Positions 9,152 through 19,511 of a stretch of 64,000 bases of DNA are shown piece by piece. Position 1 is the first letter of the stretch. Each line of letters begins with the position of its first letter. Under the pieces are notes generated by a model. That model did not search any database. It saw only the letters and a list, made by a program, of their open reading frames with translations, and was not told the origin of the DNA. The stretch is from Caldisericia bacterium (GTDB lineage Bacteria; Caldisericota; Caldisericia; JAAYUI01): the NCBI GenBank assembly GCA_963674785.1, contig OY771555.1:160001-224000 (forward strand), read 5' to 3'. Position numbers and translations under genes: made by a program.

Positions 9152-12100
9152 TTGTTTAATTCAAGATTCAATATAATCAGAAAACTCGGGGAAGGAGGAA
9201 TGGGTGAGGTGTATCTTGCCCACGATACCAGAACTGGGTCTGATGTTGCTCTCAAGATCGCAAACCTTGAGAGTTCAACTGCTAGAGAGAGATTCTTACG
9301 TGAAATTGAGATTCTTTCAAGTATTTCACATGAAAACATTGTTGACTACATAGACAATGGGATCAATGGAAATACTCTCTGGTATGAAATGGAATATATT
9401 CCCGGACTCCAGTTAATCCACTGGTTTAAGGGACAAAGCAATATTGATTTTAAAAGTCTTGCAAAAATCTTTTCTAAGATTGCATCAGCCTTATCTACTC
9501 TTCATACAAATGGGATTATTCACCGCGACATAAAACCCGATAATATTTTGGTTTGTAATGGGGAACCAATAATCGTTGATTTTGGTGTGGCACATCTAAT
9601 CGATAAGGGAGATCGAGCAAAGCTTACGAGAGCAGGTTCTGTTGTAGGTACAATCCAGTATATGTCTCCAGAACAAGTAACGGGAAGCCATATCGATGGG
9701 CGCTCAGACCTTCACTCACTTGGTGTGATCATGTATGAATTATTAACTGGAGAACACCCATACGAAGCAACCACTCTGCCGGGAATGATCTCAAGAATCC
9801 TTCAAGAAAGACCAATAAAACCATCAAGTCTAAACCCAGATATACCCGACAACCTTGAAATGATAATACTCAAGCTTCTGGAGAAAAACCCTGACTTGAG
9901 GTACAAATCAGCCGACGAACTCGAAACAGCTCTTCTGAGGTATTGTAGTGGAGGGGTTCTGACTGAGGCTGTCAATCTTTCACCACTAAAGACTAATGCT
10001 TCAAGAGATATTCCATTCGTTGGAAGAGATAAAGAACTAAATCAGCTCGAACTCTTACTTCACTCAGCAATCTCAGGAAGAGGACAGGCTATTGAAATCT
10101 TTGGTGAAGATGGTTTAGGAAAATCAAGATTGATTGAGGAATTCAGAGCACAGGCTCTTGGACACCTTTCAAAATTCCTATTGTGTTCACCACAAATAGA
10201 GGGAAGCTCAAGACTAGCAATATCATCAATTCTCGACCAACTAGCTGATTATGAAATCAATTTTGACAACAGGATTATAAAAAAACATCCACACATGATT
10301 AGAAGTCTTTCTGCAAAATTTGCAGACTCTGTCGGAATAGAAGAAAAGCCGCCTAACATCGGAGATTCAAAAGATATCCCAAACGTTGTTGCTGAAATAA
10401 TAATCAATGCCTTCCCAGAAATCCCATCTATTTATGTTTTTGAAGATGGAATTGATAGTCTTACATTTGAAATCGCAACAGAGATTTCAAAAAAAATTGC
10501 AGATAGAAAAATAGTTGTGTGTTTTGCGACAGAAAATGAGTTAAGCAAAACGATAGCAGAAAAAAAAGGCTTATCAGGGCAAGCAAATTTTTCAAAACTA
10601 ATTCTTAAACCACTTCAAAAAAATGAAATTGACGCGCTTTCAAGAGCTATCCTTGGCAGAGATTTATCCGAACCAGAAATGGATAAGATCTTTGCCAGTT
10701 CAAACGGAATGCCAAATGTTGCAATCCAGCTTCTCTCAAATATGCGTGAGGGTAGTAGGACAGTCTCACTCACATCTCTACCTGAAAATGTAAACAGCAT
10801 TTATCTTGAAAAAATCTCAAAACTTGGAGGGGAGACAAAACAACTTATTGAAGTGATGTCTCTTTTGAAGAAACCAATTCCAATCGGTCTATTGAGTCCA
10901 ATTTCATCTCTTGAAAAAGTGGATTTTGATCTTGCGTTTGAAACTCTTGATTCAATTGGATTCATTAAAGAAAAAAACATAGGCAGAGAACTTGTTGTAG
11001 AACTTGCAACAGCTGATTTGAAAAAGATAGTCTGTGAAGAACTGAAAAAAGAAAAAGCAAAAGAATACCATAATCGAATCGCTTCAACTCTTGAAATCTA
11101 CTACTCAGACACAAAAGATCAGGACATAAAAAAACGTATAGCAGAACACTATGTTGAAGCTGAAGAATTTGATAAATCATCAGAGCTATATTTATCAATA
11201 TTCAGTTATTACAACTCACATGGGAATTCAAAAAATGCAATTGATGCGATTAATGAACTTGAAAGAAACTTTGAGAAAATAACCAAAAAATCTCTGATTA
11301 TAAATTCTGTGTACTATTTCCTTATCAATTTTCCACTAACAAACCAAATGGAATTGTTTGAAAAATACAAGTTAATTGGTTTGCAACTATTAGAGAAAAA
11401 TGACCTACCTGGTTACACAGTTTTTTCGTATTATTCTGCAATTGGTGGTGCATACTTAAGGCAAAGACTTCTACTTGAATCGAGAAAACACATTGATAAA
11501 GCAAGAACTCTATACGACCAGGTCGAAGACAGTCGAAAACTGGATTTAAATATCCACGAAATTAATCAGGCAATTTTTGAAACAAACATTGAAACGCTCC
11601 GTGAGCTACTTGAAGAGCGAAAACGACTGCTTGAAAACACAAATGCTTCGGAGATTGACTGGATACCTTATTACAATAGTGAAGCAATATATTTCTCTGA
11701 AATTGGAAGCCATGCAAACGCCGTAGAAAACTTTAAAAAATCGCTTTCGATTGCCAAAAGACTCAACCATAAAAGGCAAGAACTTAGGGCGCTCACAAAT
11801 CTTGGAACTGCATGCGCTCACGCTGATCTTAATTTCAAAGCGATCGATTATTATAAACAGGCTCTAAAACTTGCAAAAGATCTTACTCTTGAAAACATTC
11901 ATGCCCTAATCTTAAATGACATGGCAAACCTTTATCTAAATGAAGGTAAAACCGTAGAATACCGAAATATATTACTTGAATACAAAAGACTGTATGAGGA
12001 TAAGGAAATCACAAAGGCTTTGATTGATTGGACATATAATTATTCACACCTCAAGGTTTTAGAAAATGATTTTGATGAAGCAGAAAACATCTTATCAAAA

Positions 12101-12769
12101 ATGAAAAACAGGGTAATTGAGTCAAACAGAAGTTTCTGGCTTCGCGAAGTCCTATATTATGAGGCACTGTGCACATTTGATAAAAACAATTTTAGAAGAG
12201 CAAAACTTCTGTTTTTACAACTCCTTGACCTTTTCAAGATTGATAAATTAGAGGACACCTTAACTCAGCTTTTCATATCAAATATTCATCTTGCCCACAT
12301 ATATGTCATCGAAGGCGAACTTGATGAAGCCGAAGAACACTACCAGAAAGCTTATTCTCTCTGCAGGAGTTACAAACAAGATATTCTTGAAAATAACCTC
12401 TTTTTTGCTGAAGCCCATATTGAGTTTGCAAAATCCATAAAAAAAGGCAGCTTTGGATTCAAAGAGTTTTTTGATGAAAGCTCATGGAGAACCTCATACA
12501 ACATTTTGATGCAGTTATCCAAAAAGTGTGAACACAAAAAATATACTATGTCAATTCTTCCAACAAGTGCTACAGAGCTTTTCGCAAAACTCGTTATCCT
12601 CAGAATAAAAAACGACAAGAAACTCCGGACAATTGAAAGAAGACAGATTTTTGAGCAGGCTGTAAATCAAATCGAACTATTATTGAAAAAATATTCAGAA
12701 CACAATTTTTCTTACAAACGTGATGAAATCATTGAGCTTAATAACGAGCTTATAATGCTTCTCGAATAG
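9152..12769 (+). CDS. Ser/Thr protein kinase + AAA/STAND-like ATPase + TPR repeats
   Basis: LGEGGMGEVY, VALK, HRDIKPDN, DFG, GTIQYMSPEQ; FVGRDKEL and GEDGLGKS P-loop; TPR-like helices at C-terminus. Confidence 0.9.
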   Translation: MFNSRFNIIRKLGEGGMGEVYLAHDTRTGSDVALKIANLESSTARERFLREIEILSSISHENIVDYIDNGINGNTLWYEMEYIPGLQLIHWFKGQSNIDFKSLAKIFSKIASALSTLHTNGIIHRDIKPDNILVCNGEPIIVDFGVAHLIDKGDRAKLTRAGSVVGTIQYMSPEQVTGSHIDGRSDLHSLGVIMYELLTGEHPYEATTLPGMISRILQERPIKPSSLNPDIPDNLEMIILKLLEKNPDLRYKSADELETALLRYCSGGVLTEAVNLSPLKTNASRDIPFVGRDKELNQLELLLHSAISGRGQAIEIFGEDGLGKSRLIEEFRAQALGHLSKFLLCSPQIEGSSRLAISSILDQLADYEINFDNRIIKKHPHMIRSLSAKFADSVGIEEKPPNIGDSKDIPNVVAEIIINAFPEIPSIYVFEDGIDSLTFEIATEISKKIADRKIVVCFATENELSKTIAEKKGLSGQANFSKLILKPLQKNEIDALSRAILGRDLSEPEMDKIFASSNGMPNVAIQLLSNMREGSRTVSLTSLPENVNSIYLEKISKLGGETKQLIEVMSLLKKPIPIGLLSPISSLEKVDFDLAFETLDSIGFIKEKNIGRELVVELATADLKKIVCEELKKEKAKEYHNRIASTLEIYYSDTKDQDIKKRIAEHYVEAEEFDKSSELYLSIFSYYNSHGNSKNAIDAINELERNFEKITKKSLIINSVYYFLINFPLTNQMELFEKYKLIGLQLLEKNDLPGYTVFSYYSAIGGAYLRQRLLLESRKHIDKARTLYDQVEDSRKLDLNIHEINQAIFETNIETLRELLEERKRLLENTNASEIDWIPYYNSEAIYFSEIGSHANAVENFKKSLSIAKRLNHKRQELRALTNLGTACAHADLNFKAIDYYKQALKLAKDLTLENIHALILNDMANLYLNEGKTVEYRNILLEYKRLYEDKEITKALIDWTYNYSHLKVLENDFDEAENILSKMKNRVIESNRSFWLREVLYYEALCTFDKNNFRRAKLLFLQLLDLFKIDKLEDTLTQLFISNIHLAHIYVIEGELDEAEEHYQKAYSLCRSYKQDILENNLFFAEAHIEFAKSIKKGSFGFKEFFDESSWRTSYNILMQLSKKCEHKKYTMSILPTSATELFAKLVILRIKNDKKLRTIERRQIFEQAVNQIELLLKKYSEHNFSYKRDEIIELNNELIMLLE

Positions 12770-12798
12770 ACCATAAATAAAAAAGTAAACATTGATTC

Positions 12799-12827
12799 TT
12801 GAAGAAGCCACATTGTTGTTGTATATT
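12799..12827 (+). promoter_or_regulatory. Sigma70-type promoter of the leader/ABC/selD operon
   Basis: TTGAAG-N17-TATATT. Confidence 0.6.
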
Positions 12828-12852
12828 CATGGCACTTATGAAGGAGATTGTA

Positions 12853-12942
12853 ATGACAACTTACAGATCGCTTTGAGCAAACAAAGGCAGATGGTTCATC
12901 TGCCAAGCCCAGACGGTCTGTTGCTTCATTTTGACCGTCTGA
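12853..12942 (+). CDS. Putative leader peptide with in-frame UGA (Sec): MTTYRSL-U-ANKGRWFICQAQTVCCFILTV
   Basis: AAGGAG (12841-46) 6 nt before ATG; TGA at codon 8 (12874-76) followed by a SECIS-like hairpin; frame stays open to TGA 12940-42. Confidence 0.65.
12886..12904 (+). promoter_or_regulatory. SECIS-like hairpin of the leader ORF
   Basis: GGCAGATG-GTT-CATCTGCC; apical loop begins GU, 17 nt after the UGA. Confidence 0.65.
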
Positions 12943-12975
12943 AAACTTAGACTTAGGAGGTCATTTTATGAAGCG
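12910..12975 (+). promoter_or_regulatory. Mutually exclusive anti-sequestrator / SD-AUG sequestrator structures (translational attenuator)
   Basis: CAGACGGTC 12910-18 pairs with GACCGTCTG 12933-41; alternatively GCTTCAT/ATGAAGC, TGACC/GGTCA and GTCTGA/TTAGAC enclose the SD AGGAGG 12955-60 and ATG 12968. Confidence 0.7.
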
Positions 12976-14131
12976 TTTCGTTACATTTGCACTTATTCTT
13001 TTCCTCGCACTTGGAGTCTTTGTCTCGTGTGGTGCTGAAAAAAAGGTGGATACAGAACCGACACCAGCAGACGTCACACCAGCAGAACTCCCTCTTTTGA
13101 GAGTGGGACACGTCAATCAGGATCATCACCTTGCACTCTACGTCGCAGCACTAAAAGGCGAATTCTTTAAGGATCAAGGTGTCTGGATGACAGAGATCAA
13201 ACCTAAAGAAAGATACACACTCCACACAGAAAATGGAGCTATCGCTGAGGTTCAACTTGTCAAATCTAAAGGTGGTTCAGAGATGACAAACAACCTCCTT
13301 GCAGGTCTTTTTGATATTGGCTTTGGTGGAGTTCCTGCAGTTATGAGTGTTGTTGATAAAGGAAAAGATGTCAGGATTCTGATGCCTTTGCAAAACGCTG
13401 GCGACCAGCTCATCGTAAAAAAAGATATGCCAGTCGAAAACTGGGAAGAGTTTGTAGAATACGTAAAAAATAACGAAACACAGCTGAAACTCGGATACAA
13501 AGCCCCAACTGCAGTTCAATACATCGTTGCTCAAAAGGCATTTACAGAAGTTGGAATCACACAAACAGAAGACCCAACAAATACAGATGCAATGGTTCTT
13601 TGGATCAATCAAAAGGGTCAAAATAACATGACCACAAATCTGGCTGCAGGTCAAGTTGATGGGTTTGTAGCAAATCAACCAACACCGGCACAAGCGATCA
13701 TATCTGATGTAGGAAAATTTATCACTGAACTTTCTGTATTGCCACCAGATGGAATGTGGAACCATCACCCATGCTGTATGGTTTGCAGCAATGAAAAGGT
13801 CAAAACAGAATACCCAGAGGAAACAAAACAGTTCCTTAAACTCATCATGCTTGCAACAGACCACATAAATGACGACATGGATGATGCAATCGAAATTGCC
13901 TACGAATTCCTCGGACAAAAAGAAGGGGTTGAACACTTATCCATTCCAACTGTATACTACAACTGCGATGACGATGAAGTTTGGAGAGGTGGAGTTGCAA
14001 CATGGGCAGTTGTTATGAATGAAATCGGAAAATATACAGGAGAACTAAAGGATATCAACGATGAAAGAGCAGTTGATCTCTGTGTTGATTTCACATTCCT
14101 TCACGAACTTCAAAAGGAGTTAGGAAAATAG
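12968..14131 (+). CDS. ABC transporter substrate-binding lipoprotein, NitT/TauT family
   Basis: Lipobox FVSC; LRVGH..QDHHLALYVA, DIGFGGVP, QVDGFVANQP, HHPCC; RBS AGGAGG. Confidence 0.9.
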   Translation: MKRFVTFALILFLALGVFVSCGAEKKVDTEPTPADVTPAELPLLRVGHVNQDHHLALYVAALKGEFFKDQGVWMTEIKPKERYTLHTENGAIAEVQLVKSKGGSEMTNNLLAGLFDIGFGGVPAVMSVVDKGKDVRILMPLQNAGDQLIVKKDMPVENWEEFVEYVKNNETQLKLGYKAPTAVQYIVAQKAFTEVGITQTEDPTNTDAMVLWINQKGQNNMTTNLAAGQVDGFVANQPTPAQAIISDVGKFITELSVLPPDGMWNHHPCCMVCSNEKVKTEYPEETKQFLKLIMLATDHINDDMDDAIEIAYEFLGQKEGVEHLSIPTVYYNCDDDEVWRGGVATWAVVMNEIGKYTGELKDINDERAVDLCVDFTFLHELQKELGK

Positions 14132-14973
14132 ACCGACAAAAGATTTCTAAAATTTTATGGAGCGTGGGTGGAGCAATTGTTCTACCCCTGCTTCTTTTTC
14201 TTGTTTGGGATTACAGTGCTGCAAGACTTGGCTCATCAACTCTGCTTCCCAGAGTATCCGATGTTTTTGATGTGGTTTTGCATCCCACAGAAGACCTAAT
14301 CAGACAAGGCACCCTGCTCTTCCATGTCTATGTTTCATCGATTCGGGTATTGATGGGTTTTGTGATAGGATCGTTGCTTGCCATAGTTCTTGGAATGATA
14401 ATGGGTTTATCAGACAAAGTAAGGCATTTTGTCACACCATTCATCGAGATACTAAGACCGCTTTGTCCTGTTGCCTGGATTCCCTTCGCGATAATTATCT
14501 TCGGTGGAGCGACCCTTTCAAACACATTTGGATACAAGTTTACTGATTCGATTCTTGATTATGTTCAGATTGCTCAACTATTCATTATCGCCTGGGGAGC
14601 ATTCTTTCCGGTATTAATAAACACGATTGATGGCGTCAGTGGTGTCAGAAAAATATGGGTTGAAACAGCAAAAACGATGAACGCATCCAAACTACAGATT
14701 TGGTCAAAGGTGATTCTCCCCGCAAGCTTCCCATCCATTTTGACTGGGCTTAAGGTTGGACTTGGTATCAGCTGGATGGTTGTAATTGCAGCCGAGATGT
14801 TTCCGGGTCCTTCTGCTGGAATCGGGTATCTGATGATGGAGGCATACGCACAAACTGAAATCCATATTCTCGCTGCCGGATTAATCACAGTTGGAATCAT
14901 CGGAGCGCTTCTGAACGCCATTTTAGCGGTTATCCATAAAACCTTTGCGGGTTGGCAGGCGAAGGAACGATAA
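14128..14973 (+). CDS. ABC transporter permease, NitT/TauT family (start ATA 14128 or GTG 14164)
   Basis: LRPLCPVAWIP, FFPVLINTIDGV, EAA-like ETAKTMNAS, VIAAEM. Confidence 0.9.
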   Translation: MDRQKISKILWSVGGAIVLPLLLFLVWDYSAARLGSSTLLPRVSDVFDVVLHPTEDLIRQGTLLFHVYVSSIRVLMGFVIGSLLAIVLGMIMGLSDKVRHFVTPFIEILRPLCPVAWIPFAIIIFGGATLSNTFGYKFTDSILDYVQIAQLFIIAWGAFFPVLINTIDGVSGVRKIWVETAKTMNASKLQIWSKVILPASFPSILTGLKVGLGISWMVVIAAEMFPGPSAGIGYLMMEAYAQTEIHILAAGLITVGIIGALLNAILAVIHKTFAGWQAKER

Positions 14974-14975
14974 AC

Positions 14976-15785
14976 ATGATAAAACTCAGTGCAATATATA
15001 AAGATTTTGATAAGCAGGAAGTTTTGAAAAACATCAATTTGAAATTCTTACCTGGGGAGTTCAACTGTATTCTTGGGCCAACCGGTTGCGGAAAAACAAC
15101 TCTTTTGAGAATTATTGCAGGGCTTCTAAAACCAGATTCAGGTGTAGTCAAAATCGAGAAGCCATCGATTTCAATGATTTTCCAACAGCAAACCCTTTAC
15201 CCATGGAGAAATGCACTCTCAAATGTTTGTCTTCCACTTGAGTTCAAGGGATACTCAAAAAAAGAACGCATCAAAATGGCAATGGCTAGATTAGCCGAGG
15301 TTGATGTAGCAGATGCAGCCAAAAAAAAGGTCTTCCAGCTATCTGGTGGAATGCAGCAGAGAGTACAGATTGCAAGGGCTTTGGTCTCTAATCCATCAGT
15401 ACTTCTTGCTGACGAACCATTCGGTTCACTTGATGAAAAAACAAGATACAAGCTTCAAAAAAAACTCAGAGAGATAACCCTTTCAAACAATACAACAACA
15501 GTTTTTGTAACTCATAATATTGAAGAGGCAATTTATCTTGGAGATAGAATTATTGTAATTGGAAACAAAGGGGTTCAAGCAGATTTTGATCTTACCACCC
15601 CACACCCTAGAGACAGACTTTCGAAATGGTTTACAAGTAAAATTCTTGAAGTAAGAAATGTTTTTGAAACACTCATCGAAGATGAAGATACAACTGATGG
15701 GATTGAAAAAAGCGAAGAACCCGAAGAAAATAACGACCCATTCAAAACAATGAAACTCGATGTGACAACAGATGAAAATGAATAA
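14976..15785 (+). CDS. ABC transporter ATP-binding protein, NitT/TauT family
   Basis: GPTGCGKTT, LSGGMQQRV, LLADEPFGSLD, VTHNIEEAI; stop overlaps the selD start. Confidence 0.93.
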   Translation: MIKLSAIYKDFDKQEVLKNINLKFLPGEFNCILGPTGCGKTTLLRIIAGLLKPDSGVVKIEKPSISMIFQQQTLYPWRNALSNVCLPLEFKGYSKKERIKMAMARLAEVDVADAAKKKVFQLSGGMQQRVQIARALVSNPSVLLADEPFGSLDEKTRYKLQKKLREITLSNNTTTVFVTHNIEEAIYLGDRIIVIGNKGVQADFDLTTPHPRDRLSKWFTSKILEVRNVFETLIEDEDTTDGIEKSEEPEENNDPFKTMKLDVTTDENE

Positions 15786-16806
15786 AGAAGAAGAGTTCAG
15801 GCTTACAAAATTTGCCGGATGTGCTGGTTGAGAGAGTAAGTGGGGGCCGGGAGCTCTCAAGAAGTTACTCAGTGACTTACCTGTTTTTGAGTCACCAGAT
15901 TTAATCACTCGTGACGTCAATAAAGCTGATGCTGCCGTTTATAAAATCAATGATGATTTATACGGTATCTATACAATTGATGTTTTCTCACCAATTGTTG
16001 ATGACCCTGAAGACTTTGGTGCAATCGCCTTTGCAAATTGTATTTCTGATGTTTGCGCAATGGGTGGGACACCAGTTCTTGGGCTAAATGTTTGTATGTT
16101 CCCAGCAGCAGCTCCAGTTGAAAAACTCAACCTTATACTTAAGGGTGCATCTGAGTCAGCCCAAAAAGAAGGGGTAATAATTGCCGGTGGACACACAACC
16201 AAAAATGATGAACTCCACTACGGACTCTCAGTTTATGGGACTGTAAAACCAGTAGATCTCAGGCTTTCATCAAATGCAAAACCCGGAGACCATATCATCC
16301 TTACAAAAGGACTCGGGACGGGTATCCTTTTTGCAGCAAAAGATAGGGCTGAGGGCGTTAACTGGCAATCAGCAATTGATTCGATGAAACAGACATCCGT
16401 TATTGCGTCAAAAATCCTAACCGAATTTGGATGCAGGTGTAGCACCGATATTACAGGTTTTGGGTTTGTACCACATCTTCTTGAAGTACTCGAAGAGTCA
16501 AGGGTAGCAGCCAAAATTAATCCAGAATCTCTTCCGCTTCTTCCTGGCGTGATTGACTTTTCTAGATCATTTGCCTGTCCGGTTTTATCAACAAACATGG
16601 AACTTGCCGGGGCAAAGTTCGACTCTGGCAAACATGATCCTAAATGGATCAACATCTGCTTTGACGCCCAAACTTCTGGTGGCTTTATTGCATTTGTTTC
16701 AGAAGAAAATGCCGGTAAGTGTTTAGAAAAGCTTATTGATGCAGGATATCAGGCAGCAGATGTTGGTGAGGTTGCTGAGGGTGAGTCGAAAATTACATTG
16801 GTTTAG
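15778..16806 (+). CDS. selD: Selenide,water dikinase (selenophosphate synthetase), selenocysteine-containing
   Basis: ATG 15778 gives MNKEEEFRLTKFAGCAG-U(TGA 15829-31)-ESKWGPG, the catalytic U-x-x-K; then DAAVY, TIDVFSPIVDDP, ISDV.AMGG, IAGGHT, TDITGFG, DAQTSGG. The ORF track shows only the C-terminal 248 aa. Confidence 0.93.
15834..15870 (+). promoter_or_regulatory. Bacterial SECIS element of selD
   Basis: Upper stem TGGGGGC/GCTCTCA with loop CGGGA 16 nt after the UGA; lower stem GAGTAA/TTACTC. Confidence 0.75.
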
Positions 16807-16832
16807 AGATATTCCAACCTGGGCTCGATCAA

Positions 16833-19511
16833 TTAATGGTTTCTGATTGGCCAAATTGTTTGTGTTTTGATAAAGTCTTCGTAACCAGACACATATCCAA
16901 ATCTTGACCTATTATAATAATTTGAAGGCATCAATTCAGACTCCAAAACATCGATAACTCCATTGCTAAGGAACTCCAATCTTACAAATTCCAAATCTTC
17001 CCTGCTGTCCTTTAATCCCCTGAAATATTCAAAATCACTACTCAATAAAACAGAACCTCTTTCTGGTAATCTAAAGGTCAAGAGTTTTTTCTCACCAAAT
17101 TTTAAATCTGTTATTTCTATTGATTCAGAAAACCTAGAATAAATAGGAGCAGCTTCCTTTAACTCATCCTTATAAGTATACCTCTCGTGCCCCCAACCCA
17201 TCAAATAAAAAACTCCTGAAAGATTCTCACCAAATCTATCCCCTCTAGTGTTAACTATTTCGAAAGTTATAGTTTCAGTACCCTGATCTATCATTTTTAT
17301 TGAAAATGTTGGGCATGGTTTCGTTTCATACAAATAGTTATAAAAATCACCACCTGCGCCAAAATGGAGAGTTCTATCCTGATAGATTATTTGAGGATCT
17401 CGAATCCACTGAACTGAATCAACCATAGATGAATACCAATACATAGGCATACTATCGATATTAACCTGGAATATATCCGAATCGATTTCTGGGAATTTTT
17501 CATTGTGAAAAATATTCTTAGCAACGGAAAAGTCAATACATGAGATCCTGTCTAAATACCTGATACCACTTAAATATTCGGGGTTTTCCAGGCTATCTAT
17601 GTATAAATCATCTCCAATTGCAGTAATAATTTTCCCTTTAAAATGTTTGTTTATTCCACCATTTTTTACAATCTCTATTCTTTCCATCAATTCGTCATAG
17701 TAGACAATCGTTGATGGTGTGAAGATAAACTCTTTAGGTTTTGAGCTTAAAACAAGTTTATTTGATTCACCTGTTGTTAGATTTATCGATAAAACTAGAA
17801 ATCTTTGTTTCCCTGATGCCCTTTCTTCCAAATCGAAGACTTTTCCAAAGAAATCATTACATACTATATCTGTCTCATCTTCATCTATATCATCGATCCA
17901 TGGACTTATCCTGTATTTTTCCAAATCGATTTTTTCGTATCCAAACTCCAGGATTTCACCAGTCCTCAAATCAATTTTCCGCATAATTCCATTTTCATGG
18001 TACGAATAACAGAAGAATCCTTTGTGGTAATATGATCCAGCGAAAAAATAATCCTCTTCATTAACATCAAAACTTACCTCTCCTCGCATACCACCATATG
18101 ATTCAACACTAACTGTATAAGCATCTTCATTTTCCTCTACATCCACCCTGCATCTAACTCTAGCATTTGAATCAGCATCATTAATCTCACTACTTGTAAC
18201 ACTATCTGAATAATCAAATGTCAAATCGTCCTTTAACGCAAAAGCACAAACAAAAGAATCACTGCACCAGTTTGACTCATGTGAGTAGTCATAAGCATAA
18301 ATTTTCCCATCGATGTTTTTGCCACCTGATTCTGCATTTGCTAAAACTCTTTTTATCAATTCACCAGTTTTCAAATCATAAATATCAAACTTCCCATAAT
18401 CTCTCGTAAACAAAAAATCACCAGCCAAAAACAAAGTTTCGATATGGTTTCTATCACAATATGGGATACTCAATACCTCTTCTTGGCTCTCAAATGAAAT
18501 CACCTTGTAGCATTGATTCCTAAATGTCCCCTCATCTTCGATGAATTGAGCTGATCTCATACAGTGATACTTCTCATTAAAATCATAGGTAACGCTCTGA
18601 CAACCATTGTTTTCAAATTGAATCCTTTTTATAATTTGCCCATCTTTGCCCAATAAAAACATAATTGTTGTCGTTTGTTAATCAAATTCATCTTCCCCCA
18701 CAAAAGTCAGATAAACCAGATATAAATCCTGCCTATTTAATACACTAAACCGTATATCTTCATCATTGATGATTTTTTTGATTTCTTCAGGGAGATCAAT
18801 AAATACTCCTTCTTTAAGATTTGCGATTTTTTCAGCAGTCATAAGCAAAGTGTCTTTCGAATAACGCTGACTTTTCCTTCGAAGAACTTCTTTCCCACTT
18901 TTCAAATCAATATATTTGTATTCATATTTTTCTCTGAATTTATCTGAAGAACCATCAATTTCTCTAATAAAAACCAAAAATTTGCCAAACAAAAGATCAT
19001 TATACATGAATCCTTCATCATCAACAGTAGGAGAACTCCAGGCAATTTGCATATCAATAAAGTCAAAAAGCTCAAGATAATATACACCATTAACCTCATA
19101 AATATTCTCAATATACCGTGTATTCCACTCCCAAGAATTATCAAGAAACCCAATATTTTCAGTTTTCATTTTCTCATCTAAAATCTGATTTTTATCATAA
19201 CCAATCGGATACAGCTTTTCATTCTTAAAACCTGTTAGGTCTTCATATTCCTTTGAATAGATATCCAATGGTCCATGAATATTGAGGTTTTTGTCAACAA
19301 CATATCTGAATCTGTGATAACTGGAATCCATGTATGATTCACCCATACTCTCATCAAAAGGCATCACATCGACCCCAAAGGTCAATGGAATGATTTTCGA
19401 AGGAGCAACAGGCAAATGAACTGTTACTTTCTCATTCTGCCCAGCAGAAATATTAATAAATTGAACAAACACGAAAACAACAACCAACAATAAAACCTGA
19501 AGTTTTCTCAT
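16833..19511 (-). pseudogene. Secreted hypothetical protein split by an in-frame TAA (ORFs 18678-19511 and 16833-18662)
   Basis: Upstream ORF has RBS ggagg and a signal peptide; its TAA is followed in the same frame by 5 sense codons and the ATG of the 609-aa ORF, with no obvious RBS. Confidence 0.6.

Follow-up and report, generated by a model that had tools for sequence, protein, structure and literature searches.

In a 64,000-nucleotide stretch of Caldisericia contig OY771555.1 (contig positions 160,001 to 224,000, forward strand; hereafter the window, in whose numbering positions are given), a spacer of 198 nucleotides (nt) separates a Ser/Thr-kinase gene (end 12769) from a four-gene operon that encodes an ATP-binding cassette (ABC) transporter and selD. 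The leader of this operon can be read as a ribosome-operated translational attenuator that senses the capacity for selenocysteine (Sec) decoding, with a Sec-type UGA as the sensing codon; we put the probability of this reading, which derives from sequence comparison, at roughly 0.6. The leader comprises a short reading frame that lies next to a promoter-like site and runs into UGA, a hairpin that resembles a Sec insertion sequence (SECIS) element, together with four segments (1 to 4) that can pair in alternative ways, the last of which contains the Shine-Dalgarno (SD) sequence and AUG of the gene for the substrate-binding protein of the transporter. An initial annotation of this region had listed a promoter, a ribosome-binding site, the ATG at 12853, the UGA codons, the hairpin and the pairings, and all of these are indeed in place. 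The elements of the leader are as follows.

12799-12827, + strand: promoter-like site, TTGAAG (12799-12804), 17 nt, TATATT (12822-12827); the sole + strand match in 12600-13100
12838-12876, + strand: leader frame, from ATG 12838 (12 codons) or from the SD-led ATG 12853 (7 codons), ending on CUU-UGA, with the UGA at 12874-12876
12841-12846, + strand: AAGGAG, the SD for the second start, ATG 12853
12863-12878, + strand: segment 1, contains the UGA and pairs with segment 2
12877-12942, + strand: read-through extension of the leader frame, 21 codons and then the stop TGA 12940-12942 within segment 3
12886-12904, + strand: SECIS-like hairpin of 8 base pairs (bp), 12886-12893 with 12897-12904, loop GUU at 12894-12896
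12907-12921, + strand: segment 2, pairs with segment 1 or (12910-12918) with segment 3
12923-12942, + strand: segment 3, the anti-SD strand; its partner is either segment 2 (through 12933-12941) or segment 4 (through 12923-12942)
12953-12974, + strand: segment 4, with the SD AGGAGG (12955-12960) and the start codon ATG 12968 for the binding protein; held by segment 3 in the ground state

Five lineages were compared, namely, the window, L007, L008 (of which L010 is a near-copy), L009 (to which L011 is identical) and L012. Four of these are species of one Caldisericia genus, and L012 is a metagenome contig with a binding protein that is 53% identical. Promoter scans of the window and the four relatives place the ATG that is in frame with the UGA 8-13 nt from the end of the -10 box in all five lineages; the mRNA would thus have the leader frame starting on its 5' end or close to it. 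In the window, ATG 12853 opens MTTYRSL, followed by TGA 12874-12876, and an extra in-frame ATG is located at 12838, 10 nt 3' of the -10 box. An SD-led second in-frame start is present in three of the four genus members, with AAG GAG (codons 2-3) doubling as its SD. The peptides encoded before the UGA are:

Window: MKEIVMTTYRSL, 12 codons
L007: MKELMMRVHGSL, 12 codons
L008: MKEDQVSKQRSL, 12 codons
L009: MTKDELFMKNRSL, 13 codons
L012: MNQQNFLRLL, 10 codons

The end of the frame, CTTTGAG (CUU-UGA-G), is invariant in the five lineages, wobble base included. The middle of the frame varies in sequence among lineages, and the sole indel there, in L009, is of 3 nt. After the UGA, frame 0 remains open for exactly 21 codons in each of the four genus members; in L009, the extension contains +1 and -1 indels 30 nt apart, yet the length of 21 codons is kept. 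In L012, the extension is 11 codons long. The other two frames after the UGA hold 0-31 open codons, with no discernible pattern. Thus, the initial expectation of a conserved upstream frame, UGA and covarying stems in orthologous leaders was borne out in all five lineages.

A small selenopeptide gene, encoding 34 residues in the window and overlapping the transporter leader by chance, would also account for an in-frame UGA with a SECIS-like hairpin and for an extension of constant length in the genus. We consider such a gene very improbable: the peptide sequence is conserved no further than the RNA helices dictate, the +1/-1 indel pair of L009 rewrites 10 residues, and the L012 extension has 11 residues rather than 21.

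The CUU-UGA hexamer of the leader is the same as the slippery site of the release factor 2 (RF2) gene, where the speed of UGA decoding is the signal; the invariant CUU-UGA at 12871-12877 is possibly a slow-UGA context shared with that gene. Frameshifting to +1 at CUU-UGA, as in prfB, is unlikely, given that the +1 frame is not conserved (18, 12, 6, 27 and 0 codons). The same lack of conservation of the +1 frame after CUU-U counts against another way of reading the leader, as a ribosome-operated switch in which the UGA is a mere stop. Here, translation of the mini-frame, reflecting general translational status or RF2 activity, would open the pairing of segments 1 and 2, with the hairpin as a cap or pause site, and selenium would not be sensed. 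The conserved frame and helices, the identity of CUU-UGA with the RF2 site and simple geometry, whereby any ribosome on the frame covers segment 1, all accord with such a switch. Nevertheless, it explains neither the invariant GUU loop at the SECIS distance of this organism, nor the constant 21-codon extension in the genus, nor the linkage to selD in three of the four genus members, and we regard it as unlikely.

The hairpin begins 9-10 nt after the UGA in all five lineages, with an 8-bp stem and an invariant GUU loop. In the window, the stem is a perfect 8 bp; the loop G follows the UGA by 17 nt in the leaders and by 18 nt in L009. Both sides have changed in 5 of the 8 pairs, and 97.5% of the cells in the alignment are paired, compared to 25-47% in slid controls; the closing pair in L008 is A·A. 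The motif consisting of TGA, 8-11 nt, a stem of at least 7 bp and a loop starting with GU occurs 31 times in the 4.47 Mb of the genome (both strands), i.e. about once per 144 kb, and one of the 31 matches is the SECIS of a thioredoxin (Trx)-like UxxC protein, the single in-frame TGA of which is kept in 11 of 11 family genomes. Within the genus, this SECIS has a spacer of 11-12 nt, a stem of 6-7 bp and a triloop (GUU or GUA) whose G follows the UGA by 18 nt. The predicted leader hairpin is SECIS-shaped by the standard of the organism itself, its loop distance agreeing with that of the Trx-like selenoprotein to within 1 nt. The features shared with bacterial SECIS elements, including that of the Trx-like UxxC protein, are the UGA, a spacer of 9-12 nt, a stem of 6-8 bp, a small loop starting with GU and a loop G 17-18 nt after the UGA. 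In contrast to the SECIS of a selenoprotein gene, the leader hairpin lies in a 34-codon frame that encodes no conserved protein, and the sequences on either side of the hairpin form a regulatory switch.

The genes for Sec decoding are present in the host genome (2.23 Mb, 39% G+C). The initial annotation had named selA, selB and selC as genes that the host should possess, and all three were found, with selC (tRNA-Sec) adjoining selB, along with a Sec-type selD; the encoded SelB carries the SECIS-binding winged-helix domain.

Folding of 12830-12990 gives -53 kcal/mol (z = -4.89), and none of 200 shuffled sequences was as stable. The sequence CAGACGGTC at 12910-12918 is complementary to GACCGTCTG at 12933-12941, and AGGAGG (12955-12960) together with ATG 12968 lies inside a hairpin spanning 12923-12974. 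The alternative helices and their conservation are:

Helix 1:2, 12863-12878 with 12907-12921: 14 pairs, 92.8% of cells paired, 1 compensatory change and 6 more one-sided
Helix 2:3, 12910-12918 with 12933-12941: 9 pairs, 97.8% of cells paired, 4 compensatory changes
Helix 3:4, inner part, 12932-12942 with 12953-12963: 10 pairs, 95.8% of cells paired, 1 compensatory change
Helix 3:4, outer part, 12923-12929 with 12968-12974: 7 pairs, 80.0% of cells paired, 0 compensatory changes

For helix 1:2, scored in 5 genus sequences, slid controls were 30-49% paired, and this helix belongs to the minimum-energy fold. Alignment columns 9/54/77 and 7/56/75 show three-way covariation across the segments; they change together, as mutually exclusive pairings would predict. 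The same four-segment scheme is found in L012, where it is built from unrelated sequence and where the UGA sits in an internal loop between helix 1:2 and the hairpin. Helix 1:2, which holds the UGA, would link the position of the ribosome to the switch.

For free RNA, the ground state combines helices 1:2 and 3:4 in all five lineages, and each minimum-energy fold has both the SD and the AUG in pairs. The fold with helix 2:3 lies above the ground state by 8.8 kcal/mol in the window, 3.1 in L007, 6.4 in L008, 6.4 in L009 and 0.4 in L012. When a ribosome footprint is masked at the UGA in constrained folds, 2:3 becomes the best pairing in four of the five lineages. With the footprint at the second stop, L012 regains 3:4 (probability of the AUG being unpaired, 0.00 vs. 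0.82), whereas the genus members lose it.

These results recast the two-fold scheme of the initial annotation. Its pairing of 12910-12918 with 12933-12941 corresponds to helix 2:3 (4 of 9 pairs with compensatory changes, 97.8% of cells paired), and its proposal that the AGGAGG and AUG of the transporter gene are occluded agrees with the folds of all five lineages. The two states are mutually exclusive as proposed, but they are not nearly isoenergetic, the SD-hidden fold being the ground state by 0.4-8.8 kcal/mol (8.8 in the window), and helix 1:2, with 14 bp and a place in the minimum-energy fold, had been overlooked.

A riboswitch-like RNA, in which a small molecule or some other protein chooses between 1:2 plus 3:4 and 2:3 while the reading frame is incidental, might be suspected from the strength of the fold (z = -4.89) and from the covarying alternative helices, which are typical of riboswitch expression platforms. 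However, a search of Rfam (T-box, riboswitches and leaders) over 11500-18000 gave no match in the leader at E values of up to 10; there is no conserved multi-helix aptamer, the unpaired parts being variable except for CUUUGAG and GUU; and the conservation of the frame in five of five lineages would be a coincidence. We therefore judge this improbable. Scans of the + strand for an intrinsic terminator that could provide the output gave nothing in the window, L007 and L008, and L009 and L012 show isolated weak matches at non-equivalent places. The hairpin, flagged on the - strand with a T-rich tail, was discarded as a terminator, since the - strand has no gene ending at this point and the relatives lack the T run.

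The nearest precedent for the hairpin is the SECIS-like element in the 5' untranslated region of Escherichia coli selAB (Thanbichler and Bock 2002), as summarized in bioRxiv 10.64898/2026.03.03.709296. In both cases, selenium-metabolism genes have a leader with a SECIS-type hairpin, which would signal the state of Sec-tRNA and SelB and reduce translation at good supply; according to that summary, the selAB hairpin is located 3 nt from the SD, is preceded by no decoded UGA and acts through SelB binding alone. By comparison with that account, the Caldisericia hairpin ends 50 nt 5' of the SD (12904 vs. 12955), is preceded by the in-frame UGA of a conserved mini-frame, is part of a three-helix switch and is associated with other regulated genes. 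An operator of the selAB kind, in which SelB-GTP-Sec-tRNA binds the hairpin and stabilizes 1:2 and the SD-hiding fold with no need for frame or UGA, is nonetheless the least improbable of the alternatives considered, albeit still unlikely. The hairpin has the SECIS shape of the organism with an invariant GUU loop, it caps helix 1:2, and SelB has the requisite winged-helix domain, in addition to the E. coli precedent; the larger distance to the SD argues the other way. Furthermore, such an operator leaves unexplained the promoter-proximal ATG in frame with the UGA in five of five lineages, the frame-keeping indels and the UGA at the SECIS distance, and helix 1:2 is already in the ground state without protein.

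In an attenuator that reads Sec decoding, transcription would start a few bases 5' of the frame of 10-13 codons, and this frame would run into CUU-UGA within segment 1, with the SECIS-type hairpin at the distance characteristic of the organism's own selenoprotein genes. The resting RNA would form 1:2 and 3:4, such that the SD and AUG of the binding-protein gene are buried and the operon is OFF. A ribosome held at the UGA, or ending on it, would cover segment 1, allowing 2:3 to form and freeing segment 4 (ON). When SelB and Sec-tRNA decode the UGA, the ribosome would proceed through segment 2 and strip 2:3, and the OFF fold would re-form. The read-through ribosome would reach segment 3 in the genus and segment 2 in L012. 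The sequences show these features, their conservation and covariation and the Sec genes of the host; translation of the frame, binding of SelB, insertion of Sec and the direction of control are inferences.

The direction of control would follow from these steps. If the mechanism is correct, we lean towards the candidate selenium importer and selD being ON at low Sec-decoding capacity and OFF when this capacity is ample, which would be sensible control for an uptake system and fits both the genus and L012. Somewhat less favored is the opposite direction, which would apply to the genus only: read-through would open 3:4 and couple to the transporter AUG 25-31 nt downstream, turning the operon ON. 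Under this alternative, the covarying helix 2:3 has no role, and L012 is not fitted.

Several observations weigh against attenuation by Sec decoding. The location of the second stop is not conserved (segment 3 in the genus, segment 2 in L012), and read-through in the genus, by opening 3:4, could turn the operon ON, which could obscure or invert the logic. When Sec-tRNA is lacking, the UGA acts as a stop, at which RF2 should release the ribosome, and a long stall like that at a hungry sense codon is not expected. The window with the footprint at the UGA keeps 3:4, and its 2:3 state exceeds the ground state by 8.8 kcal/mol. The frame has no SD in L012 and a poor one in L009; therefore, translation in these lineages would depend on the near-leaderless AUG. 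The invariance of CUUUGAG, wobble base included, could stem from a constraint at the RNA level rather than from decoding. The selD SECIS of the same operon is shaped differently: RNAfold places the start of its apical loop 12 nt beyond the UGA, and the 16 nt given for it in the initial annotation was not reproduced. Finally, the five lineages, four of which are in one genus, all belong to a single clade, and the events behind the covariation counts are therefore not independent.

With respect to distribution, the binding protein is encoded in 4 of 93 Caldisericota genomes, all of the genus of the window, and a metagenome scan with an alignment of 28 binding-protein homologues yielded 79 loci. 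The leader precedes the binding-protein gene at every locus with at least 53% identity and upstream DNA. The binding proteins P0002, P0003, P0007 and P0008 (93-51% identical) are known as proteins and stand outside the leader comparison. The homologues of 32-44% identity, from high-G+C organisms, are mostly located right after an outer-membrane-type gene, without such a leader. Scanning of 70 upstream regions of homologues (at least 150 nt each) for a mini-frame, UGA and hairpin gave 11 matches, compared to 0 in the reverse-complement control. Six of the 11 are the leader itself (L007-L012), and L073 is an eleventh; the matches in L020, L032, L040 and L055 were rejected, as each is made up of a hairpin and, before it, the stop codon that ends the adjacent outer-membrane-type gene. 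A covariance model of the core matched only the four genus genomes at E ≤ 6e-10 among the 93 Caldisericota genomes; the next five matches (E 0.003-0.08) proved, on inspection, to lie inside unrelated coding sequence, and a second weak match in genome G000 was dismissed for want of the hairpin.

The selD gene lies 3' of the transporter in the window, L007 and L008/L010, and not in L009 (genome G002). The possibility that the leader is a selD element was rejected: none of nine selD genes elsewhere (two in G002, the other seven in two further genera of the family) has the leader, with one chance motif match. Since the leader of G002 has no selD downstream of it, and selD genes elsewhere lack the leader, the leader element, as judged from gene neighborhoods, belongs to the ABC transporter and not to selD. 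The initial annotation had envisaged control of an uptake plus selD operon; the leader does precede the transporter, but it travels with the transporter rather than with selD. The core of its interpretation is supported by the comparison of all five lineages, i.e. a leader frame with UGA and SECIS-like hairpin coupled to exclusive SD-hiding pairings, whereas isoenergetic folds and the tie to selD are not, helix 1:2 was missing, and the suggested sulfur sensing by three Cys codons finds no support, a CC pair being present in 3 of 5 lineages only. In G002, two Sec-type selD genes (L099, L107) are located away from the transporter operon, and the three genus relatives have one selD each, joined to the operon.

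L012 has a gatD neighbor, for which reason an archaeal origin was considered and set aside: G000 also has GatD, hence the neighbor is no argument against a bacterial SECIS. The archaeal-type GatD (GatD_N and asparaginase domains) is found at G000:C1:1308912-1309061 (L119) and beside the L012 leader at L012:2374-3753 on the - strand. Among 14 control genomes, the GatD_N family matches only the four archaea.

Sequencing runs of one study contain a relative that is about 92% identical, in both DNA and RNA-library runs; the data are all contigs and carry no transcript start, strand or level. An RNA-library contig of 1633 nt spans 12849-13300 in one piece, such that leader and gene are contiguous, with DNA carry-over being possible. 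This contig ends at 12849, and a DNA contig of the same study extends further, which is at most a hint. Among the differences listed for this relative, the stem changes at 12903, 12928 and 12934 each convert a Watson-Crick pair to G-U. Together, the contigs of these runs give weak backing to an attenuator at this site.

Leader-peptide attenuators are transcriptional in the trpL, hisL and pheL type and translational in the ermC, cat and cmlA type. The Caldisericia leader has in common with them a short leader frame, a sensing codon in segment 1, exclusive helices 1:2, 2:3 and 3:4, and a decision made by the position of the ribosome, and its output, as in ermC, is sequestration of SD and AUG. 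In contrast to the trpL and ermC types, the sensing codon is UGA with a SECIS-type hairpin, and what the leader would read is SelB/Sec-tRNA capacity, not an ordinary charged tRNA or a ribosome stalled by a drug. Unlike transcriptional attenuators, the Caldisericia leaders have no conserved intrinsic terminator, and unlike leader-peptide attenuators in general, the alternative to decoding at their UGA is termination, not stalling. Attenuation of trp is summarized in PMC3892789 (Matson et al. 2013), which describes selenium control of Treponema primitia fdhFSec through translation-transcription coupling at a Sec codon. In that system, as in our proposal, UGA/SECIS decoding is the cell's read-out of selenium supply for expression; there, however, a catalytic Sec codon inside a structural gene is involved, the transcript is truncated prematurely, and selenium turns expression ON. 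The Caldisericia site differs from what is described there in being a dedicated leader frame, with alternative pairings whose target would be the start of translation at a gene downstream.

Full-text literature searches turned up no account of a leader frame in bacteria that carries a Sec codon. If the proposal is true, Sec decoding itself would be the sensor, a new input for the classic attenuation mechanism, and Sec-tRNA/SelB capacity could be read directly in vivo. The leader would also pinpoint genes that are under the control of selenium status, in this instance those of an ABC transporter whose binding protein has vicinal Cys residues. Bacterial selenium sensing and the regulation of uptake are largely unknown: a 2022 review states that no high-affinity selenium transport system had yet been identified in prokaryotes (PMC9312934), and Lin et al. 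(2015, PMC5322559) name a predicted LysR-type regulator and call the regulatory network unclear, to which the selAB operator can be added. We give even odds to the broader proposition that this is a natural attenuator reading the 21st amino acid through a leader UGA and SECIS and that its presence identifies the HPCC-motif ABC transporter as an importer dedicated to selenium. The leader could also be re-used as a biosensor for selenium or Sec incorporation.

The genes of the operon are:

12968-14131, + strand: ABC substrate-binding lipoprotein, NMT1_2 family, invariant HPCC motif
14164-14973, + strand: ABC permease
14952-15785, + strand: ABC ATPase
15772-16806, + strand: selD, Sec codon TGA 15829-15831

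The binding protein (12968-14131) represents a distinct family, with GH..DH and HPCC motifs that are invariant across 28 homologues of 33-80% identity; distant members of this family sit after the outer-membrane-type gene, not after the leader. Its score is weak (31 bits, cut-off 300) against SaoX, which is the binding protein with a CC motif in the SAO system.

The motif searches also touched other genes. At G000:C1, the TGA at 1767789 (L094, L120) lies in a gene for a surface protein of about 790 residues, with an N-terminal thioredoxin-like UxxC and C-terminal Cu_amine_oxidN1 repeats, and a single in-frame TGA is retained in 11 of 11 genomes of the family; judging from its sequence, this is probably an unannotated selenoprotein that gene callers have split. 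Two PQQ/BamB-type beta-propeller genes of G000:C1 have an in-frame TGA, at 1075718 (L090) and 1493975 (L093), followed by an 8-bp hairpin with a GUC loop, and in L093 the Pfam propeller domain spans the TGA; both are possible Sec-containing propeller proteins.

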